Shown here: piece after piece, positions 6,408-64,000 of the stretch
How the letters are laid out: each line of letters opens with the position of its first letter
How positions within the stretch are numbered: position 1 is the stretch's first letter
Assembly (NCBI GenBank): GCA_963924565.1
Contig: OZ004612.1
Location: forward strand, 7,688,001 to 7,752,000
Direction: 5' to 3'
DNA: 64,000 nt
DNA from: Ascidiella aspersa
Lineage: Eukaryota
The notes under the pieces: model-generated
The model's database searches: none
The model's input: only the letters and a program-made list of their open reading frames with translations
What the model was told of the DNA's origin: nothing
Translations under genes and position numbers: made by a program

Positions 6408-9400
6408 ATGCTCGATTTTCTTTATCCAATTATCTGCTTCCTGGTAATCTCAACTAAATTCAAAACTGTTTTCGGTGAGTAGATTTTTGTTGGTCCATGA
6501 TTGGCTTTTGAGCTACTAGTCTATTTAAGCCCAGCCAATATAGCAACATCATAATTGCTGTCGTGTATAATAATTGGTTAATGTTAAAAATAAGTTTTAA
6601 AGTTTATACTTGTATATTACAAATTCCAGTTGAGGGCCACTACTTGGCGATCCGAAGGCGTGATTCCTCGTGTCGGGCGGAGGATGGATTTTTCCTCTGC
6701 GACAATTTGCAGTGCGTGCAAAGACAGCATGTCCTCGACTCCAGAATCGACTGCGCTGATGGGAGTGACCAGCGCTCACGTATGCCACATATTATTATCA
6801 TAGCAAGACTTGATATACACTGAGCAGTGTAGACTATTGATTTTACCATGAATCCAACACAAGTCGAAAAGCTTTAAAAATTAATTATACATGTCCACCA
6901 GGAAAGAGCCCAGGATTTTCGTTTAGGGGAGCCGGGAAATTTTTCAGGAATGACATCACAAAGTTAAATTTTGTGAGGCCCGCGAATCGTTTTAAATTTT
7001 CGGCAAGAACTCAAATTATCTTCCACATTTCATCCTTTTTAACACCATTGTCTTGTGCTATTGCTAATTAACTGTCATTAAACCTAAATATCTTATTTAA
7101 AATTGGCCAGCTTGCCTGTTTAAAAATGAAAGATTTTGTCTAAGTAAGTTGTGTCATACATGCAACCTATACACACGTTTTGCAGCTGAGGCGCATACAA
7201 CGTTTGAATATTTAAAATTCTTGCTTAACTGGGTGGATATACTGATCTTTTGAACACTTTTTTATGGTTTTAAAATCAAGAAAAAAACAATGATTATTGG
7301 TGCCTTTGTCGCAAATTACAGTCGTAACATTTGCAACGTTTTCCGGATTCGTGGCACTTTCTGAGCTAGAAAACATTTCTGTGGGCGCCCATACCACTCT
7401 ATCACTATATATTTATAAATGCTGCTAAAAGTTAGTGTGTGTATCTACAAGTAAATCAGCGCAGGTGTGCCACCAGCAAACGAAAAGAAATACTGTTAAC
7501 AGCTTATTGCAGATACATTAAATAGGCCTATATTGATCATTTTAAAACGTTTTTGTTTCTTAGGTTTGTTGTTGCGGCTCACAGACGTAATCCAAATATG
7601 TCACAGGGTTCTCAGTAAGACTTGAGTTTGTCCCCCTGTAATAGTGCTAACCCCTGGGTGTACTAAGAAATGAGAAAACATAGCATTTATTTTTAATAAT
7701 GTTTAATTTTCAAACTTCCTTTGGGAAACCGTAGATAAAAATGTGCCCTTAATGTGTTTGGATGCCTCAACTCAATTAATGAAGTTGTGCGCATAGAAAC
7801 GCATGGTCCGCTTTAACTCAAGGCGACGAATTTACCTTCCAGCAATAAATTGCACGGACGACGAATTTCCTTGCCGATCGAGTTTCCGTTGCGTTCCGAG
7901 GCAGTTTGCGGTGGACGGATGTGTTCGTAAAAGAAACGTGATACTCGGGTGCAGAGAAGATAAAGGTTAGATACGTCGCATACGACATAAGCTTTTAAAC
8001 ATATTTTTTTAACTGGAGGTTTGCAATATTAGTTGCTTTCTCATGTTTTCTTTAAGTCGTGAGGGCAAGGCGTAGTGAAATAAATGCTGAACTTCATTTT
8101 TACATATCCAAAAATCATAACTTTTGTGATATTGCCTTCATAAATTGGTGCCGCAGAATTCACTTGCCGCAAGACTCGCCGCTGCATCCCGAGGTGGATG
8201 GTGATGGACGGAGAGAGGGATTGCGACACTTTGTCCCACAACGATTCAAGTGACGAGGAGCGCGGGTTCGAATCCTGCACGAGCTCGGAGGTGCGCTGCC
8301 ATCTTCCAGTCGGAAGTAGCTTAAAGAAGGCGCGCTGCATTCCGCGGGCGTGGGTCCGCGATAACATTACCGATTGTCCGGGAACGGGAAGTGACGAAGT
8401 GGCGCCGTTGAGCTCCTGTAATAATGTAACCGAGTTTCGCTGCAAAGATAGCGGCGGATGCGTGCTGCGGTATAGGGTAAGAGACGGATACTCGGATTGT
8501 GGCGACTCTTCCGACGAGCTTGAGCAACCCGTATGCAACAGAGACGAGTTTCATTGCCTCGATAGCGGAAGATGCATTCCCGATACCTGGATTGGGAACA
8601 AAGTAAGCGACTGTCCAGACGGAAGCGATGAAAAGGTGATTAGGCAACCAACAAACTGTTCGGCAAACCAGTTCTTATGCGCCTCATCGCGTCGATGTAT
8701 TCCTCTTGAGTATTTATGCGACGGAATCGACAACTGCGGGGATTGTAGCGACGAGATCGAGAGTTGCAAAGAACAAGGTCCGAAGATGTTTCGCTGCCCG
8801 AACCAGCCAAGCACTTGCCTGTCTTGGCAGTATTCCTGTGACGCGTTAACTGACTGCCCGAATGGCGCCGACGATATTACTTGGATGCCAGGCTTCAAGT
8901 GCCAAAAACTAGTTTTAAACTCGCCTACCGGCAAGAAATACTGCTCAGTGCCTCAATGGGCCTTACACGACCAGTTGCCTTGGTGCGACGACGGATCCGA
9001 TATATGCTTCGATGACAGAGGCGAGTTTCTGTGCTCAATGTGCTTGGACGGCAAGACCATCATAGCCAAGAGGCAGTTGTGTGATGGGATAATCGACTGT
9101 CCAGACCTTTCCGACGAGTGCCTCTGCTCGAATGGTTTTAATACGACTGTCCTTACTGAAGTCTGCTCAAACGTGTGTTACAATACGGACCTACAGGGTG
9201 CTGCGTGTCGCAACTGCAGCGTTGGGCATTTCAGGTGCGATTCAAACTGCTTGGAAATAAATAAATTTTGCGATGGCGTGGTAGATTGCCCAACATCCAA
9301 ATCAGACGAGTTGTATTGCGCTGAAAATCAAAAACTTGTCACTGCAAAAAGTTCGAAGAACTTCGTTTGTGACCTGATTACTCCCTTACATCGTACGTTG

Positions 9401-12400
9401 GCTGATATTCTTGGATTCACCTCATTCGCTGAAGGAGCGTTTGTGGAGAACGCCTTCGGGTAAATTAAATTTTCACATTGAGACACCTAAACTGAGAATA
9501 TAGTTTAAATTGTACACAAACATCAAACTAAAGACAAAATTTTGTAGGCCTAAACCTACAGTCAGTTTGTTTCGATTTTATTATGATATATATGTTTCAC
9601 TCCTATATTCCAGTCAAGCCATTTTGCCCTAATGAAACAGTAAATTAAGTTTTCTAAGTTAAGTCATTGGGTTAAGTCATAACAACACTGATGGAAACAC
9701 AATAAAATAAAAAACAAGGGAAGATTGCGTTAGTTGAAAGAAAACTCTGAGTGCAAACGTAGCAGAAATGCGTCCACATTTTCGGCTTTTTAAGTATTTG
9801 ATCTTTAGAAAGAATTTGTTTTTACCATCACTGTAGATGCGACGGAAAAGTGGAATGTCTTTATTTTGAAGACGAATGCTCCCCTCGGGCAAATTGTAGC
9901 ACAAGGCTCAAGGTTTGCGACAGCATTCCGATGAAAAAAGTTAGTATGTTACCAACCAAACTGTTCAACTTTGTTTTGTTAATTTACTGAGCATTATTTT
10001 TCCTAACAAGATACTGCATAGTAAACACACATTAAATACAAAGTGAAAGAACAGTATGTAATGAATATGCTGTTGCTGCCAGGCATACAATTGAACAATT
10101 GTTCTTCTGCCAAAATATTTCCTAAAAAACGTACATATTTATATATATATTTAATGTATAGAAATGCGTTTAATAAATTAAAATTAAAAATTATTCTTAA
10201 CGATAACTATCAGTTTTACATACTGCCAACTATCACATCAACTTTAAGTGAAATATTAAATCAGGCGTTACAAATCCAACCCTGCTGCTACGCTTTCTTT
10301 ACCGCCAGATAGTAATGCCCACTCTATGGACGAAGTTGTACAACGCGACAGGCAAGGAAATGAATCGTTTGTGCGGCGGTTTCCAGGAATACGTGATTGG
10401 ATCTTCGATTTGCAACGGTGTTCAGGAATGTAGCGAAAAGGAAGACGAGATGGATTGCGATCGTTTCTACTGCGACGCGGGAAAAGTGCCGTGGATCTCA
10501 GGTGAAAGCACATAAAAGCACACGACTCGAAAGGGAATTACGTTCCATTTTAGTTGGATTACAAAAGTTCCAGCTTCACTGTTGGCTGTTGATTAGCAAT
10601 ACCTGCCCCATGCAAGGTCATTAGGTTACCCCGGGTCATTGTCCTCACCTGGTCTTCAGGTTACCCCAGGTCATTGACCTCATCTGTTCTTCAGGAAGTG
10701 CAAATCCACCGCGAAAAATCGCAAATGCCAATATATCCACATATTTCGAGTATTTCAAACCCAAAGGCGAAAACTCAGATTGTATTCAACTTAGGGTATT
10801 TGGGGTCACACTGAACAAACTCTTGGCACAAAATGGATTGTAACAGACCGACATAAAATGAGAAACACAACACACACTAGATACAGATAAATAAATATTT
10901 ATTTAGGACCAAGGCCAAAGATTAGTATTCCTTGGTTGGAACGTTGCAATGGAGAGTTCGACTGCAAGGACAAAACGGACGAAATGAAATGCAACAAATC
11001 CACACATTTCTATTGCAAAAATAGAGAGCCTCTGTTTGTTGATCGCAAAAAGGTACGAGTATCACAACAAACGGCCATAGGTTGGTGGCATTGTGTTTAT
11101 ATTTCGCAAATTTATAGTTAATACTTTCAACAAACAATTTTTAACTAAAACCGTCATCGCCTTTTTATCAATAAAATAATTGAATTTACGAATTGCTGTT
11201 CATCAATATTTATAACTATACTAAATGCTGCGAGCCCTTTCGATAGGAAAGAACCACGTCGCAGAGATAGCGTCACGAAATTACGTCATAACCATAACAC
11301 TACAAAGTTACATAAAAACGTAAAACGCCATAAAGATGTAACCTTAAGTGCTCCAGACAGTTCGTTTAAGTCTTAGGTTGGTGAGGTGTTACTTTCAAAG
11401 CCAAAGCTACATTATATATAAGCGCACAACCTAAAAGACCTCAGAGTCGACTTAATTAAAAACAATTACACTATAACGCACCTTTGAAAGGATCGCCCTT
11501 TAATAAAACGTTACAAAAGATAAATGTGTTAACGCCGGACTTAATCGTGATTTTGGTTTCATGGCGCATCAAGCCTTTTAACATGTAGCTGAAACGCGAA
11601 ATTTGGTCCGGGGCCAGAACTTATCCGGTCGGATCAATTTTGGCGTTGGAACAGCCGCTAAAACAGGTCCGGCTAGGCCTAAACTGGATCCCCTAACGCT
11701 AACCCTAACCTTAGCCAGACCTGTTTTAGCGGCTGTTCCAACGCCAAAATCGATCCGACCCGACCAGTTTGGCGCTTGATTACGACCAAAATCGATCCGA
11801 CCGGAACAATTTCGGCGTGACAAAGCCATATATCCCGTTAAGAGATGCGATGCTACCCATGCTTTTGCGTGGGTCCACGCATCAGCAAACCTGCGCCTAT
11901 ATGTGAATTGTTTGACCGAATATGTTCTATCGCATTTTACTCTGTGCGTTTGCACATTTTTACCGTATATTCTTACTCTGACCTGATGATGCACTATTGT
12001 ACAAAAGCACATTAACACTAAATACCAATTTTCAAAAGTGCCATTTGTTTTCAGTTTTAACATATATTTGTTATCAATTCCTGCAAAGCAATAAAGGCTA
12101 TTATATTTTTCATCTTTCAGGTTGCCAACAACTTCATTTACATCGGTGAAACGTTTTTTTTTAATTTTCTTAGGTTCTTGACGGGAAGATCGATTGCACG
12201 GACTCATCCGACGAATGTCCGGAGGACTTTGACGATACGAGCGCCGTTTCCTCCAAGACCGAGATGATCAAGTCGCCCGTCCTCCGTGGCTTCGTTTGGC
12301 TCATGGCTATTTTAGCATTCTTCGGAAATGTCGCCGTGATCTTCAAGACGGTCAGGTTCATTTTCCATTCTCGAAAACGGAAGGCATCGTCTATTTCGAT

Positions 12401-13478
12401 TATTAACAACATCTTTGTTCTTAACCTCGCCTTTGCCGATTTACTGATGGGCTGTTGCCTTTTCGGCTTGGGCGCCAAGTCGGCTGAATTTTCGGGAAAC
12501 TATTGCTTGGAAGACTTGGTCTGGCGAGCGAGTTCTTCTTGCAGTGCGCTGGGAGTGAGCATAGTTTTGTCAAGCGAGGCATCCGTCTTCACACTTATCC
12601 TTCTCACGTCTTATCGCCTCTACGGAGTCCTGTTGCCCTTCAAAAGTCGTCAGCTGAGAGTTAGGGTGGCTGTTGGGTATCTTGCAGCTATTTGGGCAGT
12701 TGCTTTGTGTATTGCTCTCATGCCCTTGAGCGATATTTTATCAACGTATATGGTGACAGACATGCTGATTGCCAAAAGCCCATACTTTAAACGAGGAACG
12801 GTGAAACTTTACGAACTGGAGCAATTTGCATTGCGCTTAAACGCACTTCAGCCTGGAAATGAGACTTCTAATTTACCGCTGGACTGGGGCGGATTGGTTC
12901 AGTTCCTGTCGAAACACTTTCCTAATCAAACCACTGATGTTTTAGGCTTTCACGGTTATTACAGCGCTAACGGCGTCTGTATACCTAAGATTTATCGCTT
13001 GTCAGGTGACGAGTCAGGTTTCAACATTTACTCCGCTGTGACAATCACGTTTAGCTTCGTTTCTTTGCTATATATTCTAGTAGCTTATGTCATGATATAC
13101 CGAAGATCTGCACACAAACCAGACATTGGTTCAGCTTCGGCTTCTGCACCTAGAAATGCTAAAATACAACGCAAGATCACTTTTCTTATTGCAACCGATA
13201 TGTGCTGTTGGATGCCCATCTGCATTATGACTTTTCTAAGTATGGGCGGAATGGTCATGCCCTCCTTCGCTTACGCCTTTTCCGCCGTTATCCTGTTGCC
13301 AATTAACAGCGCTTTGAATCCAATAATTTACTCCGATACATTACCAATCGCTTTAGGTTTTTGTCGAGCACAATTATCCAAGTTACGTATGAACACTAAA
13401 CCCGTTGTTTCTGAGCAGCGATCTCAATCGACAAAAGAAGGCAACTTGCCTTCCCCTTACACGACTTCAGGACTATAG
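6408..13478 (+). CDS. Gene A1: multi-LDLa-repeat GPCR (LGR/RXFP-like 7TM, no LRR), 1129 aa; join(6408..6474,6630..6779,7843..7965,8157..9459,9837..9939,10309..10501,10907..11052,12174..13478)
   Basis: All 7 introns are GT-AG with compatible phases (1,1,1,2,0,1,0); exon lengths sum to 3390 nt. Exon 1 encodes a signal-peptide-like MLDFLYPIICFLVISTKFKTVF. Exons 2-8 carry repeated C..F.C....CI...W..D...DC.D.SDE LDLa motifs. Exon 8 has LGR/RXFP-type 7TM motifs NLAFADLLMG, SEASVFTL, YYSANGVCIP, TDMCCWMP, LPINSALNPIIY. Confidence 0.9.
10623..10692. repeat. Two 35-bp tandem units in intron 6 (A1/A2-specific segment)
   Basis: aggttaccccgggtcattgtcctcacctggtcttc repeated imperfectly; also near 27081-27150; replaced by different sequence in A3/A4. 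Confidence 0.65.
11590..11822. mobile_element. Palindromic MITE with central (TAACCC)n in A1 intron 7
   Basis: TG...CA termini, internal ~50-bp inverted arms around taaccc repeats; a 4-bp TSD tagc is clear in the A2 and A4 copies. Confidence 0.6.
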
Positions 13479-16990: not shown

Positions 16991-19900
16991 ATATAAACTG
17001 CCGAGGTCGTGTTAGGGGAAGGAAAGTTGCCTTCTTTTGTCGATTGAGATCGCTCATTTTTTTTTGTCGATTGAGATCGCTCACAGAAACAACGGGTTTA
17101 ATGTTCATTCGAAACTTGGATAATTGTTCTCGGCAAAAACCCAAAGCCGTCGGTAAGGTATCGGAGTAAATTATTGGATTTAAAGGGCTGTTAATTGGCA
17201 ACAGGATAACGGCGGAAAAGGCGTGAGCGAAGGAGGGCATGACCACTCCGCCCATACATAGAAAAGTCATAATGCAGATGGGCATCCAGCAGCACATATC
17301 GGTTGCAATAAGGAAAGTAATCTTGCCTTGCATTGTAGCATTTCTAGCAACAGAATCAGCCACAGAGCGAATGTCTGGTGTCTGTGCAGATCTTCGGTAT
17401 ATAATTACATATGCTACTAAAATATATAGCAAAGAAACGAAGCTAAACGTGATTGTCACAGCGGAGTAAATGTTGAAACCTGACTCGTCGCCTGACAAGC
17501 GATAAATCTTAGGTATACAGACGCCATTAGCGCTGTAATAACCGTGAAAGCCTATAACATCAGTGGTTTGATTAGGAAAGTTTTTCGACAGGAACTGAAC
17601 CAATCCGCTCCAGTCCAGCGGTAAATTAGAAGTCGCATTTCCAGGCTGAAGCGCGTTTAAGCGCAAAATAAATTGCTCCAGTTCGTAAAGTTTCACCGTT
17701 CCTTGTTGGAAGTAAGGGCTTTTGGCAATCAGCATATCGCTGACCATATACGTTGATAAAATATCGCTTAAAGGCATGAGAGCAATGAACAAAGCAGCTG
17801 CCCAAATAGCTGCAAGACACCCAACAGCCACCCTAACTCTCAACTGACGACTTTTAAAGGGCCAAATGACTCCATAGAGGCGATAAGACGTTAGAGGGAT
17901 AAGTGTGAAGACGGATGCCTCGCTCGACAAAACTATGCTCACTCCCAGCGCACTGCAAGAAGAAATCGCTCGCCAAACCAATAGTTTCCCGAAAACTCAG
18001 CCGGACTTGGCGCCCAAGCCGAAAAGGCAACAGCCCATCAGCAAATCGGCAAAGGCGAGGTTGAGAACAAGAATGTTGTTGATAACCGAAATAGACGATG
18101 CCTCCCGTTTTCCAGAATGGCAAAACGATTTGGACATGTCAAATAACTTTTGCAACCAAACAAAAAAACATTGCTTCATCGCTTACAGAACTTGAGTTCA
18201 GCGCCCAATTTCTTAAATGGCGGACAATTGCGACAAAATGTCTTGGACAAGGCAAGGTATTTAAACATTTACCTGAAGTCCACGGAACCCTTCCGGCGTC
18301 GCAGTAAAAGTGATCGCATTCAATTTCGTCCTCGCTCTTGCTGCATTCCTGAACACCGTTGCAAATCGACGAACCCACCAATCGTCGAACGGTACTCCAG
18401 GAAACCTCGGCACTTTCGGTTTATTTCCAAGCCCGTAGCTTTGTATGACTTGGCCCACACAGGAGGCATTACTATCTGACGAAAAGAACTGTATTCTAAG
18501 GACAATGTCGATTGGCTGCCTGTGCATGAAATTGCAGTGTGTTCGCTTGATATTCCAAGACTTCACTTCGATTTCCTCTATACTTGTTGGGTCTGAGTAA
18601 CCTAGTCACAAACTGACCAGCTTTATCCCGACTTTGCGCTACAACTTCTAACCGCCTGAGCGGTAGAAAACGCTCACAAGACATGTTGTGTTGTGCTGTG
18701 AGCATTCGCTGAAAAGCGCAGTTATTCTGGATTTGGGAATGCAAAATAAATCTAACGACATACGCAGGTTGAAATATCGAGGCTATTTTGCCCAGTTTTG
18801 ATGAAGTCCTGTCGGGCAGTCAATCTCCCTTGTAGAAACATACAGTATTAAGTATAATGGTAGAATCCGCTACGCTACGTAAATCTTTGGGTGACATTTA
18901 ATGTCAGCTAGTATAAACACTAAGTTCGCTCTAAAACTGGGCAATTTGTTTATTAGAGTAAGTTAATTTTGTTATTGTTTGAATCCCATTAAAGGCTTAT
19001 TAGATGTTAACATACATAAATTTTTGGGTATTCATAATTCAAAACAATTTGTTTACTTAAATGTTTTAGCCTTAATAGTGGTTTTAGATGCATTTAAAAA
19101 ATTATAATAATGATAACCCGTTAGAAAACAAACCTTACTTTTTTCAGTGGAATGCTGTCGCAAATGCTGAGCCTTGTGCTACAGTTTTCCCGCGGAGAGT
19201 ATCCGTCATCAAAATAAAGACATTCCACTTTTCCGTCGCATCTATAGTTAAAAAACATTTTTATAGTAAAAAGGACAGTTAAAAAAACTGTGTCTCAGTA
19301 TTTGTGCGACTTAAACTGGTATACCGCTATTAGGAATTTGTTTGTTAGGATTAAAATTACCCGACACCGTTGTCGACAAACGCTCCTTCAGCGAACGAAG
19401 CCAATTTGAGGATGTCGGCCAAAGTACGATGTAAGGGAGTAATCGGGTCATAAACGAAGTTCTTAGGACTTTTTGCAGTGACAAGTTTTTGATCTTTAGC
19501 GCAATACAACTCGTCTGATTTGGATGTAGGACAATCTACCGCGCCATCGCAACACTTATTTCTTGCCAAACAGTTTGAATCGCACTTGAAATGCCAAACG
19601 CTGCAGTTACAACACACAGCACCCTGCAGGTCCGTATTGTAACACAGGTTCGAGCAGACCTCAGTGAGGACAGTTGTATTAAAACCATTCGAGCAAAGGC
19701 ACTCGTCGGAGAGGTCTTGACAATCGATTATCCCATCACACAACTGTCTCTTTGATACGATGGTCTTATCGTCCAAGCAAATCGAGCACAGAAACTCGCC
19801 TCTGTCATCGAAGCATATATCGGATCCGTCGTCGCACCAAGGCAACTGGTCGTGTAAAGCCCATTGAGGCACTGAGCAGTATTTATTGCCGGTGGGCGAG

Positions 19901-20611
19901 TTTAAAACTAGTTTTTGGCACTTGAAGCCTGGCATCCAAGTAATGACGTCGGCGCCATTCGGGCAGTGAGTTAACATGTCGCAGGAATACAAGACAGGCA
20001 AGTGCTTGGTTGGTTCGGGCAGCGAAACATCTTCGAACCTTGCTCTTTGCAACTCTCAATCTCGTCGCTACAATCTCCACAGTTGTCGATTCCGTCGCAT
20101 AAATACTCAAGAGGAATACATCGACGCGATGAGGCGCATAAAAATCACCTTTTCATCACTCCCGTCTGGACAGTCGCTTACTTTGTTCCCAATCCAGGTA
20201 TAAGGAATGCATCTTCCGCTATCGAGGCAATGAAACTCGTCTCTGTTGCATGCAAGTTGCTCAAGCTCGTCGGAAGAGTCGCCACAATCCGAGTATCCGT
20301 CTCTTACCCTATACCGCAGCACACATCTGCCGCTATCTTTGCAGCGAAACTCAGTTGCGGTATTACAGGAGCTCAACGGCGCCACTTCGTCACTTGCTGT
20401 TCCCAGACAATCAGTAATGTTATCGCGGACCCACGCCCGCGGGATGCAGCGCGCCTTCTTTAAGCTACTTCCGGCGGGAAGATGGTAGCGCACCTCCGAG
20501 CTTGTGCAGGATTCGAACCCGCGCTCCTCGTCACTCGCATCGCTGTGGGACAAAGTGTCGCAATCCCTCTCTCCGTCCATCACCATCCACCTCGGAATGC
20601 TGCGGCGAGTC
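16941..20611 (-). pseudogene. P2: truncated, frameshifted copy of gene B
   Basis: Same lesions as P1, plus a short duplication and frameshift in the C-terminal tail near 17035-17085. Confidence 0.9.
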
Positions 20612-22048: not shown

Positions 22049-25000
22049 ATGCTCGATTTTCTTTATCCAATTATCTGCTTCCTGGTAATCTCAACTAAAG
22101 TCAAAACTTTTTTCGGTAAGTAGATTTTTGTTGGTCCATGATTTGCTTTTGAGCTACTAGTCTATTTAAGCCCAGCCAATAAAGCAACACCATAATTGCT
22201 GTCGTGTATAATAATTGGGTAATGTTAAAAATAATTTTAAAGTTTATACTTGTATATTACAAAATTCCAGATGTGAACCACTACTTGGCGATCCGAAGAC
22301 GTGATTCCTCGTGTCGGGCGGAGGATGGACTTTTCCTGTGCGACAATTTGCAGTGCGTGCAAAGACAAGATGTCCTCGACTCCAGAATTGACTGCGCAGA
22401 TGGGAGTGACCAGCGTTCAAGTATGCCACATATCATTATCATAGCAAGACTTAAAATACCCTGAGCAGTTTAGACTATTGATTTTACCATGAATCCCATT
22501 TTTTTCAAATACAAGCCGAAAAGCTTTAAAAATAAATTATTTATGTCCACCAGGAGAGAGTCCAGGATTTTCGTTTAGGGGAGCCGGGAAATTTTTCAGG
22601 AATGACGTGACAAAGTTACATTTTGTGAGGCCAGCAAAACGTTTTAAATTTTGGGCAAGAACTCAAATTGTCTTCCACATTCCATCCTTTTTAACACCGT
22701 TGTCTTGTGCTATTGCTAATTAACTGTCATTAAACCTAAATATCTTATTAAAACTTGGCCAGCTTGCCTGTTTAAAAATGAAAGATTTTGTCTAAATGAG
22801 TTGTGTCATACATGCAACCTACACACGTTTTTCAGCTGAGTCGCATACAACGTTTGAATATTTAAAATTCTGTCTTAACTGGGTGGATATACTGATCTTT
22901 TGAACCCTTTTTTATGGTTTTAAAATTAAGAAGAAAAAAAAAAAACGATTATTGTTGCCTTTGTCGCAAATTACAGTCGTTACGTTTGCAACGTTTTCGG
23001 GATTCGTGGCACTTTTCGCGCTAGAAAACATGTATGTTTATGTAGGCGCCCATTCCACTCTATCACCATACATTTATGAATGCTGCTAAAAGTTAGTGTG
23101 TGTATCTACAAGTAAACCAGCCACCAGACGAAAAGAAATACTGTTAACAGCTTAGTGCAGATACAATAAATAGGCCTATATTGATCATGTTAAAACGATT
23201 TTCGTTTCTTAGGTTTGTTGTTGCGGCCCAATGACGTAATCGAAATATGTCACAGTAAGACTTGAGTTTGACCCCCTGTAGTAGTGCTAACCCCTGGGTT
23301 TACTAAGAATTGAGAAATATAGCATTTATTTTTAATAATGTTTAATTTTCAAACTTCCTTTGGGAAACCGTAGAGTAAAATGTGCCCTTAATGTGTTTGG
23401 ATACCTCAACTCAAATCATGAAGTTGTGCGCATAGAAACGCATGGTCCGCTTTAACTAAAGGCGACGAATTTACCTTCCAGCAATAAATTGCACGGACGA
23501 CGAATTTCCTTGCCGATCGTCCTTCCGTTGCGTTCCGAGGCAGTTTGCGGTGGACGGATGTGTTCGTAAAAGAAACGTGATACTCGGGTGCAGAGAAGAC
23601 AAAGGTTAGATACGTCGCATACGACATAAGCTTTTAAACATATTTTCTTAATTGGAGGTTTGCAATATTAGTTGCTTTCTCATGTTTTCTTTGTGACGTG
23701 AGGACAATGCGTAGTGAAGAAAATGTTGAACCCTACGTTTTTTACATATCCAAAAATCATAACTTTTGTGATATTGCCTTCATAAATTGGTGCCGCAGAA
23801 TTCACTTGCCGCAAGACTCGCCGCTGCATCCCGAGGTGGATGGTGATAGACGGAGAGAGGGATTGCGACACTTTGTCCCACAACGATTCGAGTGACGAGG
23901 AGCGCGGGTTCGAATCCTGCACGAGCTCGGAGGTGCGCTGCCATCTTCCAGTCGGAAGTAGCTTAAAGAAGGCGCGCTGCATTCCGCGGGCGTGGGTTCG
24001 AGATAACATCACCGATTGTCCAGGAACGGGAAGTGACGAAGTGGAACCTTTGAGCTCCTGTAACAATGCAACCGAGTTTCGCTGTAAAGATAGCGGCAGA
24101 TGCGTGCTGCGGTATAGAGTAAGAGACGGATACTCGGATTGTGGCGACTCTTCCGACGAGCTTGAGCAACCCGTATGCAACAGAGACGAGTTTCATTGCC
24201 TCGATAGCGGAAGATGCATTCCAGATACCTGGATTGGGAACAAAGTAAGTGATTGTCCAGACGGAAGCGATGAAAAGGTGAATATGCAACCAACAAACTG
24301 TTCGGCAAACCAGTTCTTATGCGCCTCATCGCGTCGATGTATTCCTCTTGAGTATTTATGCGACGGAATCGACAACTGTGGAGATTGTAGCGACGAGATC
24401 GAGAGTTGCAAAGAGCAAGGTCCGAAGATGTTTCGCTGCCCGAACCAGCCAAGCACTTGCCTGTCTTGGCAGTATTCCTGCGACGCGTTAACCGACTGCC
24501 CGAATGGCGCCGATGACATCACGTGGATGCCAGGCTTTAAGTGCCAAAAACTAGTTTTAAACTCGCCCACCGGCAAGAAATACTGCTCAGTGCCTCAATG
24601 GGCCTTACACGATCAGTTGCCTTGGTGCGACGACGGATCTGATATTTGCTTCGATGACAGAGGCGAGTTTCTGTGCTCTCTGTGCTTGGACGGTAAGACC
24701 ATCGTAGCCAAGAGACAGCTGTGTGATGGGATAATTGACTGTCCAGACCTTTCAGACGAGTGCCTATGCTCGAATAGTTTTAATACGACTGTCCTTACTA
24801 AGGTCTGCTCGAACGTGTGTTACAATACGGACCTACAGGGTGCTGCGTGTCGTAACTGTAGCGTCGGGCATTTCAAGTGCGATTCAAACTGCTTGGAAAT
24901 CATTAAATTTTGCGATGGCGTGGTAGATTGCCCGACATCCAAATCAGACGAGTTGTATTGCGCTGAAAATCAAAAACTTGTCAATGCAAAAAGTCCGAAG

Positions 25001-28000
25001 AACTTCGTTTGTGACCCGATTACTCCCTTACATCGTACGTTGGCTGACATTTTTCGATTCGCCTCTTTCGCTGAAGGAGCGTTTGTGGAGAACGCTGTCG
25101 GGTAAATTAATTTTTCACATTAAGATACCTAAACTGAGAATACAGTTTAAATTGTACACAAACATCAAACTAAAGACAAAGTTTGTAGGCCTAAACCTAA
25201 AGTCAGTTTGTTTCGATTTTATTATGATATATATGTTTCACTCCATATTCCAGTCAAGCCATTTTGCCCTAATGAAAGAGCAAATTAAGATTTCTAAGTT
25301 AAGTCATTGGGTTAATTCATAACAACACTGATGGAACACAATAAAATATAAAACAAGGAAAGATTGCGTTAGTTGAAAGAAAACTCTGAGTGCAAACGTA
25401 GCAGAAATGCGTCCACATTTTCGGCTTTTTAAGTATTTGATTTTAGAAAGAATTTGTTTTTACCATCACTGTAGATGCGACGGAAAAGTGGAATGTCTTT
25501 ATTTTGAAGACGAATGCTCCCCTCGGGCAAATTGTAGCACAAGGCTCAAGGTTTGCGACAGCATTCCAATGAAAAAAGTTAGTATGTTAATACCCAAGTG
25601 TTCAACTTTGTTTTGCTAATTTACTGAGAATTATTTTTTCTAACAAGATACTGCATAGTAAACACACATTAAATACAAAGTGAAAGACCGGTATATAATG
25701 AATATGCTGTTGCTGCCAGGCATTGTTTCAATTAAACAATTGTTCTTCCGCCAAAATATTTCCTAAAAAACGTATATATATATATATATATAATGTATAG
25801 CGGTCATGTTCAAATGGCGAATCGCGATCCGGTTCCGGATCTTTTTAGCGTTTTGTGCTGATCTTCTAATGTAGTCTTAAAAAAACAAACTTTCTACAAT
25901 GTTTTCATGTGAATACCAATTTTCAGTGTTAATGAATTTTGTAAAAAATTAAGCATAGAAAGAAACTCCCAAATGCTAAGCTTTGTGAGCGTTTGAGGAA
26001 TTCAGCGACAGAAAACCCAAATTCGATGCTATTGTAAGACCTAAGGTCTAAAACAGGGGTTGGCAACCTACGACCCGCGGGCCGGATGCGCCCCGCCAAT
26101 TGAATTCATTCGGCCCGCCGCCTCTTTGACAAACTAGATACGCGTCCATTTCAAATACTTTTTGACTATTTTAAGTACGTAAGTGCGAAAAAATTTTAAG
26201 CTTCGCGCGAATCATCTCTCTACGCCCCGCTTGTTTACGTTTTGATGCGGTCTTTTGAACTAGATCAGCGCTTCGTTACCGTTAATGGTAAACTTATTCA
26301 AAAATGTTAAACATATATGTTTTTTAACATTTTGTATTTCCGGCAATGTAATAAAAACTTGAAAGAAATTTAAAAGTAATGCAGGCATACCTAAAAAAAA
26401 TCGCGCTCGCTTTGCTCGCCACGTGCGCCCTGACTTATAAAGGTTTACAAACACTAAACAAGATTAAATATTAAAGTTATCGCGTTTACATAAATAAAGC
26501 ACCATAAAAATCAAAGCGTGTCCAAAATGTTTACTATTCGTATTTGATGGATCATCGTGTTGTCAGGTTTGGCTATGTTGGATCATGGCAGAAATCATTT
26601 GAACACCCCTGATGTATAGGGGTACGTTTAACATATTAAAATGAAAAATTATTCTTAACGATAACTATCAGTTTTACATACTGCCAACTATCACATCAAC
26701 TTTAAGTGAAATATTAAATCAGGCATTACAAATCTAACCCTGCCGCTACGCTTTCTTTACCGCCAGATAGTAATTCCCACTTTATGGTCGAAGTTGTACA
26801 ACGCGACAGGCAAGGAAATGAATCGTTTGTGCGGCGGTTTCCAGGAATACGTGCTGGGATATTCAATTTGCAACGGTGTTCAGGAATGTAGCGAAAAGGA
26901 AGACGAGACCGAATGCGATCGTTTCTACTGCGACGCGGGAAAAGTGCCGTGGATCTCAGGTGAAAGCACATAAAAGCACACGACACGAAAGGGAATTACG
27001 TTCCATTTTAGTTGGATTACAAAAGTTCCAGCTTCACTGTTGGCTGTTGATTAGCAAAACCTGCCCCATGCAAGGTCATTAGGTTACCCCGGGTCATTGT
27101 CCTCACCTGGTCTCCAGGTTACCCCAGGTCATTGACTTCATCAGTTCTTCAGGAAGTACAAATACACCTCGAGAAGTCGCAAAGGCCAATATATCCACAT
27201 ATGTCGAATATTTCAAATCCAAAGGCGAAAACTCAGATTGTATTCAACTTAGGGTATTTGGGGGCACACTGAACAAACTCTTGGGTTTGCACAAAACGGA
27301 TTGTAACAGACCGACATAAAATAAGAAACACAACACACACTAGATACAGATATATAAACATTTATTTAGGACCAAGGCCAAAGATTAGTATTCCTTGGTT
27401 GGAACATTGCAATGGAGAGTTCGACTGCAAGGACAAAACGGACGAAATGAACTGCAACAAATCCACCCATTTCTATTGCAAAAACAGAGAGCCTCTGTTT
27501 GTTGATCGCGAAAAGGTATGAGTATCATAACGAACGGCCATAGGTTGGTGGCATTGTGTTTATATTTCTCAAAGTTATAGTTAATACCTTCAACAAACAA
27601 TTTTTAACTAAAACCGTCATCGCCTTTTTATCAATATAAAAATTGAATTTACAAATGGCTGTTCATCAATATTTATAACTATACTAAATGCTGTGAGCCC
27701 TTTCGATAGGAAAGAACCACGTCGCAGAGATAGCGTCACGAAATTACGTCATAACCATAACACCACAAAGTTACATCAAAACGTAAAACGCCATAAAGAT
27801 GTAACCTTAAGTGCTCCAGACAGTTCGTTTAAGTCTTAGGTTGGAGAGGTGTTACTTTCACAGCCAAAGCTACATTACATATAAGCGCACAACCTAAAAG
27901 ACCTTAGAGTCGACTTAATTAAAAACAATTACACTATTACGCACCTTTGAGAGGATCGCCCTTTAACAAAACGTTACAAAAGATAAATGTGTTAACGCCG

Positions 28001-30785: not shown

Positions 30786-30786
30786 G
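30745..30786 (+). ncRNA. Minimal type I hammerhead ribozyme motif (second copy)
   Basis: Identical to 14262..14303. Confidence 0.65.
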
Positions 30787-44500: not shown

Positions 44501-45197
44501 TTACTTTAAAGAAGGAACGGTGGAACTTCACGAACTGGAGCAATTTGCCTTGCGCTTAAACGCACTACAACCTGGAAATGCAACTTCTAATTTACCGCTG
44601 GACTGGGGCGGATTGGTTCAGTTCCTGTCGAAACACTTTCCTAATCAAACCACTGATGTTTTAGGCTTTCACGGTTATTACAGCGGTAACGGCGTCTGTA
44701 TACCTAAGATTTATCGCTTGTCAGGTGACGTGTCAGGTTTCAACATTTACTCCGTTGTGACAATCACGTTTAGCTTCGTTTCTTTGCTATATATTTTAGT
44801 AGCTTATGTCATTATATACCGAAGATCTGCACAGAAACCAAACATTCGTTCAGCTTCGGCTTCTACAGCTAGAAATGCTGGAATACAACGCAAGATCACT
44901 CTCCTTATTGCAACCGATATGTGCTGTTGGATGCCCATCTGCATTATGACTTTTCTAAGTATGGGCGGAGTGGTCATGCCCTCCTTCGCTTACGCCTTTT
45001 CCGCCGTTATCCTGTTGCCAATTAACAGCGCTTTAAATCCAATAATTTACTCCGATACCTTACCGACCGCTTTAGGTTTTTGTCGAACGCATCTTTTAAA
45101 GTTCCGCACCAAGACTAAACCCGTTGTTTCTGAGGAGCGATCTCAATCGACAAAAGAAGGCAACTTGCCTTCCCCTAACACGACTTCAGGACTATAG
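38540..45197 (+). CDS. Gene A3: multi-LDLa-repeat GPCR, 1129 aa; join(38540..38606,38764..38913,39979..40101,40296..41598,41980..42082,42438..42630,42952..43097,43893..45197)
   Basis: Same exon lengths and phases as A1, GT-AG sites intact. ORFs 40337..41602 and 43983..45197 correspond to exons 4 and 8. Confidence 0.9.
43396..43558. mobile_element. Right half of the intron-7 MITE in A3
   Basis: Left arm deleted; (taaccc)4 and right terminus gcgtgaca retained. Confidence 0.55.
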
Positions 45198-55982: not shown

Positions 55983-56350
55983 ACCGTCTAAATCGGAATA
56001 AGTCCTAAATCCGTCGGAATTAGACCTAAAAGGTCAGAATCAGGCGTAAACAACACTATAAGTAACCCCAAACCCCACCCCTAATTACCCTACATCACTA
56101 ACTCCCCTAATAATTTCAACACTAACCTATTTTCTAAGCCCACCCATTACCAACCAATAATCCCAAACAGGACCAAAAATCCAGTGCCAATACAGCGGTC
56201 AGACTAGTCCAAACGTAGTCACCAAAACGGCAGATGCCAGCCGGTTGGCCTCCGGTCGTCCAATACCCTCTACCCACATGTTTCGGGCGTTATTTTGGCC
56301 ATTCAGGCCTTCTTCCGATGAACTTAGGTCTTATTCAGACGATTTTGATC
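55983..56350. mobile_element. Possible old fold-back/MITE remnant
   Basis: Degenerate inverted arms (gaataagtcctaaatccgtcggaa vs ttccgatgaacttaggtcttattc) around a C-rich aaccc/ccctaa tract; ends and TSD not resolved. Confidence 0.4.
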
Positions 56351-58206: not shown

Positions 58207-61200
58207 CTAAACTCCCGAGGTCGCGTTAGGGGAAGGCAAGTTGCCTTCTTTTGTCGATTGAGATCGCTCATCAGAAACAACGGGTTGAGTGTTCATACGT
58301 AACTTGGATAATTGTGCTCGAAAAAAACCTAAAGCGATTGGTAAGGTATCGGAGTAAATTATTGGATTCAAAGCGCTGTTAATTGGCAACAGGATAACGG
58401 CGGAAAAGGCGTAAGCGAAGGAGGGCATGACCACTCCGCCCATACTTAGAAAAGTCATAATGCAGATGGGCATCCAACAGCACATATCGGTTGCAATAAG
58501 GAAAGTGATCTTGCGTTGCATTCCAGCATTTCTAGCTGCAGAAGCCGAAGCTGAACCAATGTCTGGTTTCTGTGCAGATCTTCGGTAAATAATGACATAA
58601 GCTACTAAAATATACAGCAAAGAAACGAAGCTAAACGTGATTGTCACAGCTGAGAAAATGTTGAAACCTGACTCGTCGCCCGACAAGCGATAAATCTTAG
58701 GTATACAGACGCCATTAGCGCTGTAATAACCGTGAAAGCCTAGAACCTCAGTGGTTTGATTAGGAAAGTTTTCCGATAGGAACCGAACTAATCCGCCCCA
58801 GTCCAGCGGTAAATTAGAAGTCGCATTTCCAGGCTGAAGTGCGTTTAAGCGCAAAGCAAATTGCTTCAGTTCGTCAAGTTTCACCGTTCCTTGTTTAAAG
58901 TAAGGACTTTTGGCAATCAGCATGTCTGTCACCATATACGTTGATAAAATATCGCTCAAAGGCATGAGAGCAATGAACAAAGCAACTGCCCAAATAGCTG
59001 CAAGACACCCAACAGCCACCCTAACTCTCAACTGACGACTTTTGAAGGGCCACAGGACTCCGTAGAGGCGATAAGACGTGAGAAGGATAAGTGTGAAGAC
59101 GGAGGCCTCGCTTGACAAAACTATGCTCACTCCCAGCGCACTGCAAGAAGAACTCGCTCGCCAGACCAAGTCTTCCAAGCAATAGTTTCCCGAAAACTCA
59201 GCCGACTTGGCGCCCAAGCCGAAAAGACAACAGCCCATTATAAAATCGGCAAAGGCGAGGTTAAGCACTAAGATGTTGTTGATAACCGAAATAGACGATG
59301 CCTCCCGTTTTCGAGATTGGCGAATGAACCTGACCGTCTTGAAGATCACTGCGCCATTTCCGAAGAAGGACAAAATGGCCATAAGCCAAACGAAGCCGCG
59401 GAGGACGGGCGACTTGATCATCTCGGTCTTGGAGGAAACGGCGCTCGTATCGGCAAAGTCCTCCGGACATTCGTCGGATGAGTCCGTGCAATCAATCTTC
59501 CCATCAAGGACCTAAGTAATACAATTAAGACAGCATTACCACATACAATAAGAGAGTTTTTCCTTGATGAGTGTGTAATAACGATCTTTTTCAGCCTAAA
59601 TTTTCGCCTGCTTAACTAACTACTTTCGGCTGGTAAACGGTTACACATATGTGTTGGCTATTGTGATTTATCGCTTTTGAAGTTGCGCGAACCCATATGA
59701 ACGTTACATATGAACGTTTTCTGTGTTTTGTGAATAGATTGCTTTGAGCAAGGAATCTATTCAAAGTACGGGCCTACAATTTTAAATTACCTTTTAAACA
59801 TTCACAATAATCAGCCGTTTATTTTCCAAGAGTTTTACGGTTTAATATGCCATATATTCCGGTTTACTTATAAATCGACAGGTTAAAAATTTTTCACTTG
59901 TTCTCAAAACACTCAACCGTCAACCTTTTGTCTTTTAGTTCTAGGACATAACCTATACCTTGTCACGATCAACAAACAAAGGATCGCCGCTTTTGCAATA
60001 GAAATGGGTGGATTTGTTGCAGTTCATTTCGTCCGTTTTGTCCTTGCAATCAAACTTTCCGTCGCAACGTTCCAACCAAGGAATACTAATCTTTGGTCTT
60101 TTTCCTAAAAATGAGCAAATACTTTTTTTTTAAACTCTAGATAAATGGGATGTCATGGCTTGTTTCAGTTTTCCTTTGTGTCCATGGCAAAACTTATCAG
60201 AACAAAATCAAATGTTGTGTGGCTTTCTATTATTAAGATGGTCTAATTTTTCTAAGTTTGCCTATTACTATCAATAAACAAGGATCGGTGCGTTACAACA
60301 AAAGTCACTCTTTGTACGACATAACGATTTAGACATATCAAATACGTTTTGAAACCAAACAAAAAAACACAGTCCTTGTAACGCTTACAGAACATAAGTT
60401 CGGTGCCCAATTTCTTAAATGGCAGACAATTGCGACAAAATGTCTTGGACAGGGTAAGGTTTTCATAACATTTACCTGAAGTCCACGGAACCTTTCCGGC
60501 GTCGCAGTAAAAGCGATCGCATTCGATCTCATCCTCGCTTTTGCTGCATTCCTGCACCCCGTTGCAAATCGACGGACCCACCAGGTACTCCAGTAAACCC
60601 CGGCACTTTCGGTTTATTTCCAAGCCCGTAGCGTTGTATAACTTGGCCCACACAGGAGGCATTACTATCTAAGGGAAATAACTGTATTCTTATAAGGGCG
60701 ATGTCGGTTGGCTGCCTGTGAATGGAATTGCAGTGTGTTCGTTTGATATGACAAGACTTTACTTCGATTTCCTGCATCCTTGCTGGGACTGAGTAACCCA
60801 GTCACAAACTGACCACCTACTCCTAATCGGTTTTGCGCTACATCTTCTAACCGCCTGAGCGGTAGAAAGCGCTCACAAGAAGTGTTGTGCTGTGCTATTA
60901 TTCTGGATTTGCGAATGCAAAAAATCTCTAAGTCTAACGACATCCGCAGGTTGAAATATCTAGGCAAATTGCCCAGTTTTCATGAAGTCCGACAGTTGGG
61001 TATAGTCAATGCCCCCTTGTAGAAACATACAGTATTAAGAAATGGAAGAATCCGCTACGCTACGTAAATCTTTGGGTGACATTTAATGTCAGCTAGTGTA
61101 AACATTAAGTTTTCTCTAATTCTGGGCAATTTATGTATTATAGTAAGTTAATTTTGTTATTGTTTCAATCCCATTAAAGGCTTATTAGATATCAACCTAT

Positions 61201-64000
61201 ATATTTTTTTATATTGGTTTTAGAGGCATTTAAAAAATTCTAATAATAATAACCCGTTAGAAAACAAACCTTACTTTTTTCAGTGGAATGCTGTCGCAAA
61301 TGCTGAGCCTTGTGTTACAGTTTGCCCGCGGAGAGCATTCATCTTCAAAATACAGACATTCCACTTTTCCGTCGCATCTATAGATAAAAAATATTTTAAT
61401 AGTAAAAATGACAGTTAAAGAAACCTAAAATATATGTCAGGATTGGTGCGACTTAAACTGGTATCCCGGTATTAAGAATTTGTTTGTTAGAATTAGAATT
61501 ACCCGACAGCGTTGTCGACAAACGCTCCTTTAGTGAATGCTGCCAATTTGAGGATGTCAGCCAAGGTATGGTGAAGAGGAGTAATCGGGTCACAAACGAA
61601 GTTCTTCGGACTTTTTGCAGTGACAAGTTTTTGATTTTCAGCGCAATACAACTCGTCTGATTTGGATGTCGGGCAATCTACCACGCCATCGCAAAATTTA
61701 TTTATTTCCCAGCAGTTTGAATCGCACTTGAGATGCCCAACGCTGCAGTTGCGACACGCAGCACCCTGTAGGTCCGTATTGTAACACACGTTCGAGCAGA
61801 CCTCAGTAAGGACAGTAGTATTAAAACCATTCGAGCAGAGGCACTCGTCAGAGAGGTCTGGACAATCAATTATCCCATCACATAACTGCCTCTTGGCTAT
61901 GATGGTCTTACCGTCCAAGCACAGAGAGCACAGAAACTCGCCTCTGTCATCGAAGCAAATATCGGATCCGTCGTCGCACCAAGGCAACTGGTCGTGTAAG
62001 GCCCATTGAGGCACCGAGCAGTATTTCTTGCCGGTAGGCGAGTTTAAAACTACTTTTTGGCACTTGAAGCCTGGCATCCAAGTGATGTCATCGGCGCCAT
62101 TCGGGCAGTCGGTTAACGCGTCACAGGAATACTGCCAAGACAGGCAAGTGCTTGGTTGGTTCGGGCAGCGAAACATCTTCGAACCTTGCTCTTTGCAACT
62201 CTCAATCTCGTCGCTACAATCTCCACATTGGTCGATTCCGTCGCATAAATATTCAAGAGGAATACATCGACGCGACGAGGCGCATAAGTACTGGTTTGCC
62301 GAACAGTTTGTTGGTTGCATATTCACCTTTTCATCGCTTCCGTCTGGACAGTCGCTTACTTTGTTCCCAATCCAGGTATCTGGAATGCATCTTCCGCTAT
62401 CGAGGCAATGAAACTCGTCTCTGTTGCATGCAATTTGCTCAAGCTCGTCGGAAGAGTCGCCACAATCCGGGTATCCGTCTCTTACCCTATACCGCAGCAC
62501 GCATCTGCCGCTATCTTTGCAGCGAAACTCGGTTACATTATTACAGGAGCTCAACGGCTCCACTTCGTCACTTCCCGTTCCTGGACAATCGGTGATGTTA
62601 TCGCGAACCCACGCCCGCGGGATGCAACGCGCCTTGTTTAAGCTACTTCCGGCTGGAAGATGACAGCGCACCTCTGAGCTTGTGCAAGATTCGAACCCGC
62701 GCTCCTCGTCACTCGGATCGTTGTGGGACAAAGTGTCGCAATCCCTCTCTCCGTCCATCACCATCCACCTCGGGATGCAGCGGCGAGTCTTGCGGCAAGT
62801 GAATTCTGTGGCGAAAAGTTCCAAATCCAAGAACTGATGAAGACTATTTCAAATAATTTATACAACCTATAAATTAAATTATTGACTTTCATTAATTGCT
62901 ACACTGGCAGTAAGGTAAAAAGTCAGCCGGACAAATCCATTCGTTCTTTACAGTTCAGTAGTTTAACAATAACTGTATTGACCCTTTCATTTATTGGAGA
63001 CTTTCCCTCATTTTATACCTACTATCGATGCGGCTTAACGAATCCTAACTGCAACTATTGAAAAGAGTAAAATTCCAAAGTTGCTTTAGTGAAAACAAAC
63101 CTTTGTTCGTCGTTCTTATGAACAACTCAACTGTATTTTATAGTTTTTTACACGATTGCCGTAGTAGTTAAATGAGAAAAGAAATACGAGACGTAACAAA
63201 TGCGACGTAGCCTACCTACCTTGATTTTCTCTGCACCCAAGTATGACGTAACGTTTATGAACACATCCGTCAACCGCAAACTGCCTAGGAAGGCAACGGA
63301 GGGTCGATCGGCATGGAAATTCGTCGTCTGCGCAATTTAGTTCTGGAAGAACAAATCGCCATAGATTGTTATTGCTGACGATGCTCCTCTCAATGGTGAC
63401 AATCAGGGCTGCCGGAGTCGGACTCTGGACTCGTGGAGTCGGTTTGTTTTGCTGGAAACGGACTCGGGATTAGGGACTCGAGTAAGACTATGTTAATCTA
63501 CCCTAGACCCGAGTCCAACGTGGGCATGCGCATTACCCAAGTTTCTAAACTGATAAGGCCGCGAAATTGTTAAAGTGTAATAGCAAATGGTGGCATATTT
63601 TCCAAAACCATGTATTGTGGGGGGATGAATTGGACGGCCCTGTGAGTGGGTGCCGAATATCAACCTTATTTTAGTTACGTAAATGTGTGAAACACAGGCT
63701 CTAGAGACGGAGCGATACTCGTTTTAGTTTTAACCGACTCTGCAGTCCTGGTGACATTTAACGACATATATATTTTTTTTTTTCTTTTCAAAGTCGCCCC
63801 ATTTGCCTGTACAGTGGTCGAATAAATCGAATTGAAAAAACATCAAGTCCTGTAATTCGGTCAATTAAACGTTTTTTCTATAACTACGTGGATTACTTAA
63901 GCGTTGGTCGGACCCATCTGCGCAGTCTTCTTTTGTGTCCCGTACTGTCTGCCTTTCCACGCATTGTGAGTTGTCGCAGAGGAAGAATCCGTCCTCTGCT
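58207..64000 (-). CDS. Gene B: multi-LDLa-repeat GPCR paralogue, 5'-partial in window; complement(join(58207..59511,59959..60104,60476..60668,61275..61377,61503..62805,63220..63342,63897..>64000))
   Basis: Exons 3-8 have the same lengths (123,1303,103,193,146,1305) and phases as the A genes, with open frames and GT-AG sites. Exon 2 (AEDGFFLCDNSQCVERQTVRDTKEDCADGSDQR) runs off the window end. Introns do not visibly resemble A introns. Confidence 0.88.
63404..63750. mobile_element. hAT-type MITE in gene B intron 2
   Basis: TIR cagggctgccggagtcgg / ccgactctgcagtcctg; 8-bp TSD gtgacaat/gtgacatt; internal ggagtc/gactc subterminal motifs. Confidence 0.8.

Follow-up and report, generated by a model that had tools for sequence, protein, structure and literature searches.

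How can a receptor with an RXFP1-like seven-transmembrane (7TM) domain be held inactive when it has no leucine-rich repeats (LRRs)? This question is raised by a 64,000-nucleotide stretch of the genome of the ascidian Ascidiella aspersa (contig OZ004612.1, positions 7,688,001 to 7,752,000 of the forward strand; hereafter the window), which holds a tandem cluster of genes for predicted G protein-coupled receptors (GPCRs) composed of a signal peptide, an array of LDLa-like modules, a short hinge and an RXFP-type 7TM domain. In RXFP1, extracellular loop 2 (ECL2) fills the orthosteric pocket, Leu402 and Leu403 are needed, and Ile396, Ser397 and the LRRs restrain ECL2; the 7TM domain alone is constitutively active at 70% of Emax, replacement of Ser397 by Ala raises basal activity and Leu566Asp abolishes signalling (bioRxiv 2022.01.22.477343). 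A further study describes ECL2 as the transducer, stresses the hinge and TM7, and reports that D6.44 stabilises inactive RXFP1 (bioRxiv 2026.06.10.731386). Since LRRs and hinge restrain ECL2 in RXFP1, a receptor devoid of LRRs needs another restraint. We lean towards the reading that in the receptors of the window a stalk, a disulfide staple and a cap inserted in ECL2 supply this restraint, and that binding of a ligand to the LDLa modules releases it.

Gene models and absence of leucine-rich repeats

Self-comparison of the window revealed tandem units, each consisting of a + strand gene, often with an inverted partial copy, and exon mapping yielded a predicted 8-exon gene of 1129 aa with GT-AG intron ends and without stop codons in genes A to D (a 7-exon model of 1088 aa, in which the 123-nt exon 3 had been missed, was dropped). 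In agreement with the sequence-only reading that preceded this analysis, the window contains five intact-looking genes and three pseudogenes, the fifth gene being completed beyond the window end. The genes are:

6408..13478, + strand: gene A, predicted intact, 1129 aa, GT-AG intron ends, no stop
6408-6474, 6630-6779, 7843-7965, 8157-9459, + strand: exons 1-4 of gene A
9837-9939, 10309-10501, 10907-11052, 12174-13478, + strand: exons 5-8 of gene A
22049..29962, + strand: gene B, predicted intact, 1129 aa, mosaic
38540..45197, + strand: gene C, predicted intact, 1129 aa
47218..54216, + strand: gene D, predicted intact, 1129 aa; its 7TM exon (52912-54216) was used for folding and searches
58207..64000 and beyond, - strand: gene E, intact once adjoining DNA supplies exon 1 and the beginning of exon 2

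The five predicted proteins are 87-96% identical to one another (gene E 87-88% to A-D), and all intact copies have the same exon set and a fixed module number. The count of ~15 LDLa-like modules between signal peptide and hinge is a manual parse of the 1129-aa model, in which several modules have only four cysteines.

Pfam analysis of the scanned window exons, among them exon 4 of genes A and D, returned 7tm_1 and, with 4-5 stretches in exon 4, Ldl_recept_a (PF00057); LRR, EGF and propeller families were absent, and the other matches lay below the cutoff. A six-frame scan of the window for an LRR motif gave 0 matches, and the seven introns of gene A are short (155-1121 nt, open frames of at most 94 aa). 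The architecture read from the letters alone, with LDLa and 7tm_1 expected in Pfam and hidden LRR exons named as one refuting outcome, is borne out in these exons. Outside the window, a RefSeq protein of Clavelina aligns to residues 36-1128 of the model (42.5% identity over 1107 columns with 30 gap positions), a JGI protein without LRRs likewise aligns with the spliced model over its full length, and Pfam at E 0.001 found no LRR family in any of 26 long paralogs encoded by a single open reading frame (ORF), most of which start with a signal peptide; paralog L022 has one sub-threshold LRRNT match (E 0.009). In a raw RNA run labelled with the same species, of which about 6% was read, depth was 0.8-2.8 over the 7TM exon and 3' end of gene D, with the ECL2 insertion covered and any paralog being a possible source, and all first mates have the orientation that sense transcripts would give in a standard stranded library. 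No splice joints were listed in this shallow sample; the single-ORF paralogs and the end-to-end RefSeq match give indirect support for one transcript that carries both the LDLa exons and the 7TM exon.

Hinge, stalk, ECL2 insertion and cysteine pair

The features on which the proposed mechanism is built are the following:

8891..9127, + strand: stalk core of gene A, made up of two atypical LDLa-derived modules (residues 359-437) that recur in intronless paralogs
12216..12218, + strand: free cysteine at the end of the last LDLa module in gene A, candidate partner of the cysteine in extracellular loop 1 (ECL1)
12240..12269, + strand: hinge of gene A, aligned to the RXFP1 pre-TM1 segment
12504..12506, + strand: extra ECL1 cysteine of gene A, not in LRR-type and glycoprotein hormone receptor (GPHR)-type relatives
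12726..12953, + strand: ECL2 segment with insertion in gene A, from alignment and folding
29210-29437, 44445-44672, 53464-53691, + strand: ECL2 segment with insertion in genes B, C and D
12978..12989, + strand: ECL2 plug motif C-I-P-K of gene A, last residue basic

RXFP1 is the best sequence match of a window protein in the PDB (E 1.1e-26). In fold searches, which covered the 7TM part only, the top 30 Foldseek ranks listed for gene D were all leucine-rich repeat-containing GPCRs (LGRs), with TSHR first and RXFP1 second, and the top match of VIA was RXFP1 (Z 29.4, rmsd 3.0, 271 aligned) with the hinge in register. D2.50, R3.50, W6.48, P6.50 and the NP-x-x-Y motif of TM7 are kept, and D6.44 is nearly invariant. 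The hinge, already noted as RXFP-like, aligns to the pre-TM1 segment of RXFP1 by sequence as well as by structure, the equivalents of Ile396, Ser397, Leu402 and Leu403 being Val, Ser, Met and Ile in gene A. RXFP1 and RXFP2 (type C1 LGRs), which provide the closest solved structure, share with the window receptors the hinge switch residues, the C-hydrophobic-P of ECL2 and D6.44, but have one LDLa module plus LRRs that hold a peptide-hormone ligand, an ECL2 of 17 aa (bird RXFP1 row), a hydrophobic Leu566, an acidic residue at 3.49 and no ECL1 cysteine. At the Leu566 equivalent, the fourth position of the plug motif, the window genes carry Lys and 71 of 78 tunicate rows Lys or Arg, in contrast to the C-hydrophobic-P-hydrophobic motif of LRR-bearing LGRs. 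Four paralogs at C9:15.57-15.63 Mb (L016-L019) and L054 have Ala at the Ser397 equivalent, the register beside a second Ser being uncertain, and are possibly constitutively active.

The ectodomain consists of two parts, variable distal LDLa repeats and a conserved proximal stalk. The distance between the conserved core and the C-terminal end is 647-691 aa in 35 of 37 paralog ORFs (2 were not parsed), and the distal repeats number 0-21; the window protein has the core and the last modules in common with intronless paralogs. The stalk core is the most conserved part of the ectodomain (pN/pS 0.02-0.06 in 40-codon windows over residues 321-440). AlphaFold modelled the stalk core plus 7TM of the intronless paralog L022 (671 aa) with a predicted local distance difference test (pLDDT) score of 86.1 and a predicted template modelling score (pTM) of 0.83, from which we infer that stalk and 7TM would form one rigid unit.

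ECL2 measures 73-97 aa in 115 of 115 tunicate-type rows, compared to 14-19 aa in 55 of 56 others (one is misaligned) and 13-15 aa in 15 GPHR-type outgroups. The insertion, ~70 residues long, is under purifying selection (dN/dS 0.23), and in the AlphaFold model of the gene D 7TM exon (pLDDT 89.8, cap blocks 88-96; pTM 0.87) three strands and three helices are predicted, suggesting that this cap folds as a small alpha/beta domain. With the ECL2 part as query, all matches in the ESM Atlas were under 0.9. In three Ciona models of 2008 that have the ECL2 motif, as given in the accessible part of their source, TM4 runs straight to the motif and the insertion is omitted, which would explain why it went unreported. 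The open-access literature searched contained neither the insertion nor the hinge/ECL1 cysteine pair, the rigid stalk or the ctenophore relatives described below.

The cysteine that ends the last LDLa module is presumably unpaired, given the cysteine pairing of the LDLa fold, and the extra cysteine in ECL1 is missing in 20 of 20 LRR-type or outgroup rows and in 15 of 15 GPHR-type rows (one row is common to both sets). The two co-vary in 174 of the 178 tunicate-type proteins parsed, and on a tree of 129 proteins, from which P0439 and short rows were excluded, both traits agree in 127 and change 7-8 times. From this sequence pattern it is likely that the hinge and ECL1 cysteines form a disulfide staple.

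In the mechanism that we favour, the LDLa-derived stalk, likely stapled, and the predicted cap would take over the restraining role of the LRRs and, together with the hinge, would hold TM7 and the plug of ECL2 in an inactive state. Binding of a large extracellular protein to LDLa modules would then shift the stalk, release the hinge and allow the receptor to couple to G protein. A natural LRR-less family of this kind would show how an RXFP1-type hinge/ECL2 switch can be rewired, in a way that is directly testable. Several observations weigh against this mechanism. Both cysteines are missing together in 52 of the 178 tunicate-type proteins, so the staple is not essential, and independent pairs of changes number only 5 (4-5 concordant, none discordant, p 0.06-0.13), which is too few for significance. 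Moreover, the basic residue at the Leu566 position may mean that the plug works in another way, TSHR and LHCGR are reported to function without the equivalent ECL2 residues (bioRxiv 2026.06.10.731386), and the stalk-cap contact is read from pTM alone, in the model of paralog L022 and not of a window gene.

Relatives in ascidians and ctenophores

A genome-wide search for the exact ECL2 motif gave 163 matches versus 1 in the reversed control, a count that includes pseudogenes and misses variants. In a genome-wide 7TM search 96 of 345 candidates were scored, and outside the window subfamily 68 of the 70 scored matches sit within open frames 730-1811 aa long. Those top homologs that have an organism name come from ascidians (Clavelina, Styela, Ciona, Phallusia), and an LRR family is missing from them; the database label 'LRP2-like' on several homologs stems from the repeats only. 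LDLR and LRP, which cross the membrane with a single helix, likewise have tandem LDLa modules with acidic calcium-cage residues, but the window receptors are seven-helix proteins without the EGF or propeller families that Pfam would recognise in the scanned exons.

From Ciona, Kamesh et al. (2008) described LDLRR-GPCRs, orphan receptors with 1-10 repeats comprising 14 LRR-less members plus 14 unclassified ones; they guessed lipoprotein or large-complex ligands, found expressed sequence tags (ESTs) mostly in blood, and noted LDLa-repeat GPCRs in protostomes and echinoderms (PMC2396169). The sequence-only reading had pointed to this family, and the link was confirmed against sequences in the accessible part of the paper: ci0100137355 and ci0100153351 match tree proteins P0013 and P0006. 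Because these two listed members match, membership is established and the window receptors are ascidian LDLRR-GPCRs. Both sets have an RXFP-like 7TM, N-terminal LDLa repeats and no LRR, and differ in size, with 14 + 14 genes and 1-10 repeats in Ciona versus 163 motif loci and ~15 modules here. The accessible part of PMC2396169 contains no description of a stalk, cap, staple or ctenophore relatives for the Ciona receptors, and Kamesh et al. alone describe this LRR-less family in the open-access literature searched; in the accessible parts of papers on the Mnemiopsis genome, on choanoflagellate GPCRs, by Roch and Sherwood, and on placozoans, LRR-less LDLa GPCRs are not described. What was known is thus an LRR-less orphan family; the predicted cap, the likely staple, the putatively rigid stalk, a tenfold larger family and a ctenophore sister group were absent from the open-access literature searched, and the sequence-only reading mentions none of them. 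With correct gene models, the Ciona orphan family of 2008 becomes testable.

The phylogeny with RXFP, GRL101 and Ciona relatives that had been called for gave an LRR-less clade (support 100/98) apart from RXFP and GRL101, which holds P0006 and P0013, in a tree of 59 rows and 262 columns representing a chosen subset; tunicates alone are supported by 86/68. The window subfamily, including Styela and Clavelina members, forms a clade (100/99), and one paralog pairs with Phallusia (100/90), a pairing that points to a phlebobranch ascidian. GRL101 (type C2 LGR) resembles the window receptors in its many LDLa modules on an RXFP-like 7TM and its lineage-specific tandem expansions, but it keeps LRRs between LDLa and hinge, has a short ECL2 and lies outside the LRR-less clade.

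One Pleurobrachia match led to 161 relatives, the named ones being Mnemiopsis or Pleurobrachia. These ctenophore-type LDLa-7TM proteins, which the databases call hypothetical, lack an LRR family in 120 of the 120 listed (out of 161), have an ECL2 that measures 79-92 aa in 102 of the 104 proteins parsed, carry both the hinge and ECL1 free cysteines in 108 of 108 parsed, and show the basic residue three positions after the ECL2 cysteine; specific to them are the absence of the Ser-Ser hinge segment and C-x-F-K versus C-x-P-K/R here. Trees built without the insertion join tunicates and ctenophores in one clade, with one outgroup (96/89) as well as with 15 (the 100/98 tree), and forcing tunicates with RXFP/GRL101 costs 17.3 log units, a marginal result (p-AU 0.043). 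A quick tree with 17 divergent proteins added places the ctenophores inside the LRR-less group, four of the added proteins being basal, and the first FastTree had a ctenophore pair beside the tunicates with a support of only 0.41. Homology of the inserts is claimed because of the profile-profile score between tunicate and ctenophore inserts (88% probability, E 2.9e-6; best of 30 controls E 0.0026) and because two Pleurobrachia proteins were retrieved by the tunicate TM4-ECL2 profile; a hidden Markov model restricted to the tunicate insert retrieved a single ctenophore-type protein at E<0.01. The TM4-ECL2 profile, built from sequences of this genome only, matched 215 representatives at E 0.001 among 1.84 billion, and the 140 new matches listed, the two Pleurobrachia proteins among them, contain no LRR motif. 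With a whole paralog as query, the ESM Atlas returned one Chordata-dominated and two Ctenophora-dominated clusters at 0.96-0.98.

Tentatively, and with some reserve, we propose that the tunicate and ctenophore proteins belong to a single LGR subtype that has escaped recognition, in which LRRs are lacking, ECL2 carries a cap and the ectodomain is stapled to ECL1; it would have expanded to 100 or more genes per lineage and, at least in this ascidian, would form a variable-repeat repertoire. Against this proposal stand the stalk modules, which in the compared part show only LDLa-level similarity between the two groups, the long ctenophore stem branch (1.43) and the composition of the tree, which was built without named ctenophore, sponge or cnidarian LRR-bearing type C receptors; other phyla may hold family members too. 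If it is true, the repertoire would have arisen by changing LDLa module number and surface residues on a fixed signalling base, and the scattered distribution of the subtype could have come about in two ways: it arose at the root of the animals and was lost from most phyla, or it passed from one gelatinous marine lineage to the other. A clade of tunicates and ctenophores with no other named group would in both cases be surprising, as massive loss or as animal-to-animal transfer. The more than 150 loci with variable LDLa repeats are in any case a candidate repertoire for recognition in the vertebrates' sister group.

Two further sets of proteins came up in these searches. P0458 is a 5042-aa Pleurobrachia model with four TM4-ECL2 profile matches, probably a fused tandem array of the LRR-less family. 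P0244-P0302 include many receptors of the GPHR type, near P0114, whose long ectodomains have no Pfam LRR listed; they may form a further LRR-poor LGR group or be gene calls that were cut short.

Expansion, selection and assembly of the cluster

The whole cluster measures ~144 kb and contains 18 copies. Twelve of them have the full gene structure, of which 10 are intact, one carries a frameshift and one is interrupted by a stop at codon 27; five are truncated and the last is a fragment. Nearest neighbours among the copies shift along the gene; gene B, for instance, differs from gene A at 58 nt in the stalk and at only 7 nt from hinge to TM7. Such a mosaic pattern is expected from crossing-over or conversion, and the tandem multiplication is likely due to recent unequal crossing-over. 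A dispersed intact copy, L012 (C8:7100797-7108083, - strand), keeps its introns and is 92-95% identical to the + strand copies; judging from its sequence, it is a DNA-level move to another chromosome-scale contig.

The sequence-only reading had taken the cluster for a birth-and-death family that diversifies its recognition surface. Its tandem copies and pseudogenes proved real, but diversification was overstated for the cluster and the pseudogenes represent a single death. A repertoire in which each copy recognises one ligand (immune, allorecognition, gamete or settlement cues) would fit with ten intact copies in about 144 kb and with N-terminal 72 residues that are variable at half of the positions. 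In a codon model of the cluster (dN/dS 0.27 overall), M2a moreover beats M1a with a likelihood ratio test statistic (LRT) of 26.2 and puts 0.8% of codons at a dN/dS of about 6 (sites 238, 648, 902), which also counts against the conserved-ligand reading preferred below; this signal is inflated because the copies recombine, and our own implementation kept relative branch lengths fixed. Pooled over 9 ungapped intact copies, however, dN/dS in the ectodomain (distal repeats 0.20, stalk 0.17) is not above that of the 7TM parts (0.16-0.33), no 40-codon window has a ratio above 1, and every copy has an identical module set.

Stronger diversification is seen in the intronless paralogs: for 21 of them the LRT was 249 and 2.7% of sites had a ratio of 4.5. 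Of 18 positions flagged, 17 lie in the middle stalk, and some fall in gappy columns. In the 38-residue repeats of this clade (40 distinct ones) the cysteines and acidic cage are kept, and positions 22, 27, 29 and 31 are most variable. Positions 22, 27 and 29 correspond to the ligand-contact face in LDLR structures. A recognition repertoire would also be in line with the blood ESTs of the Ciona family (PMC2396169) and with the GRL101 cluster that maps to, and is linked with, schistosome resistance in snails (PMC12297450); in four Ciona rows of the accessible part of PMC2396169, though, identical EST accessions turn up under more than one model and the matches extend to many tissues, so the blood signal is weak. 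Taken together, we consider a diversifying repertoire in the window cluster unlikely, and diversification likely belongs more to the intronless sister clade. With its relatives in Styela and Clavelina the window subfamily is old, and purifying selection predominates in it; a conserved ligand is therefore likely, and the extra copies would mostly reflect dosage or drift; by itself, the window cluster is an ordinary recent expansion, mostly under purifying selection.

Loss of the LRRs might instead have made the receptors constitutive, the LDLa array being an inhibitory or endocytic, scavenger-like site whose ligands dampen signalling or get cleared. LRR deletion does make RXFP1 constitutive (bioRxiv 2022.01.22.477343), Ala occupies the Ser397 equivalent in the four C9 paralogs and L054, and LDLa clusters are cargo-binding sites in LDLR and LRP (PMC2396169). 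The window genes, however, keep the equivalents of the hinge Ser and Ile, D6.44 is nearly invariant, and the stalk is predicted to be rigid with the 7TM, which renders this explanation improbable compared to a restraint by stalk, staple and cap.

The three pseudogenes of the window are:

1348..4950, - strand: pseudogene 1, exons 1-3, 7 and start of exon 8 gone, frameshifts; precedes position 6408
16991..20611, - strand: pseudogene 2, lesions of pseudogene 1 plus a 26-nt insertion
33439..37060, - strand: pseudogene 3, shared lesions plus private ones

All three lack exons 1-3, 7 and the start of exon 8 and have deletions of 32 nt, about 1 kb and 13 nt in common; pseudogene 3 also has the shared 1-nt and 10-nt insertions, and two further pseudogenes upstream have lost the same exons with the same breakpoint in exon 8. 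These identical lesions indicate one dead gene that was copied along with its neighbour. That the cluster is largely an artefact of haplotypes placed in tandem, as 6-7 kb segments 99.3-99.7% identical among four copies (within allelic range) could suggest, is very improbable, since coding sequence differs by 3-11% between most copies, gene bins are several-fold deeper than unique flanks (contigs of two DNA-like runs from two samples), the pseudogene deletion joint has a depth of 219 versus 47-67 for unique pieces (contig depths being a rough guide and not a copy number), an intact copy lies on another contig and the cluster is flanked by ordinary-looking genes. There is a small but real chance that a few near-identical copies are artefactual. 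The flanking genes, named from reading their translations, are a single ORF of 1115 aa with ankyrin repeats upstream (L001:4306-7650, -) and Raf/KSR-like kinase exons downstream (L011).

Two kinds of repeats occur in the window. The stretches at 55790-56970 and 63420-63700 are high-copy repeats, very deep in DNA contigs and with both strands transcribed, and are probably similar to short interspersed elements or miniature inverted-repeat transposable elements. Intron 7 of genes A-D contains an inverted-repeat element with TAACCC runs, of which orientation or length varies between copies:

about 11590-11800, 28080-28260, 43390-43500, 52350-52500: intron 7 inverted-repeat element of genes A, B, C and D

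Elsewhere in the genome, about 18 intronless members of 861-892 aa lie at C2:35.36-36.69 Mb, mostly 30-100 kb apart, first on the - strand and then on the + strand with one 300-kb gap, resembling a large segmental array. Eleven further matches with an identical ECL2 motif, not among the scored protein matches, lie at C6:1.42-2.44 Mb as another recent array. Finally, L055:1207-6639 is a single ORF of 1811 aa with 22 Pfam LDLa stretches, many of its repeats being acidic, Trp-rich and near-identical, whereas the repeats of its sister genes are basic.

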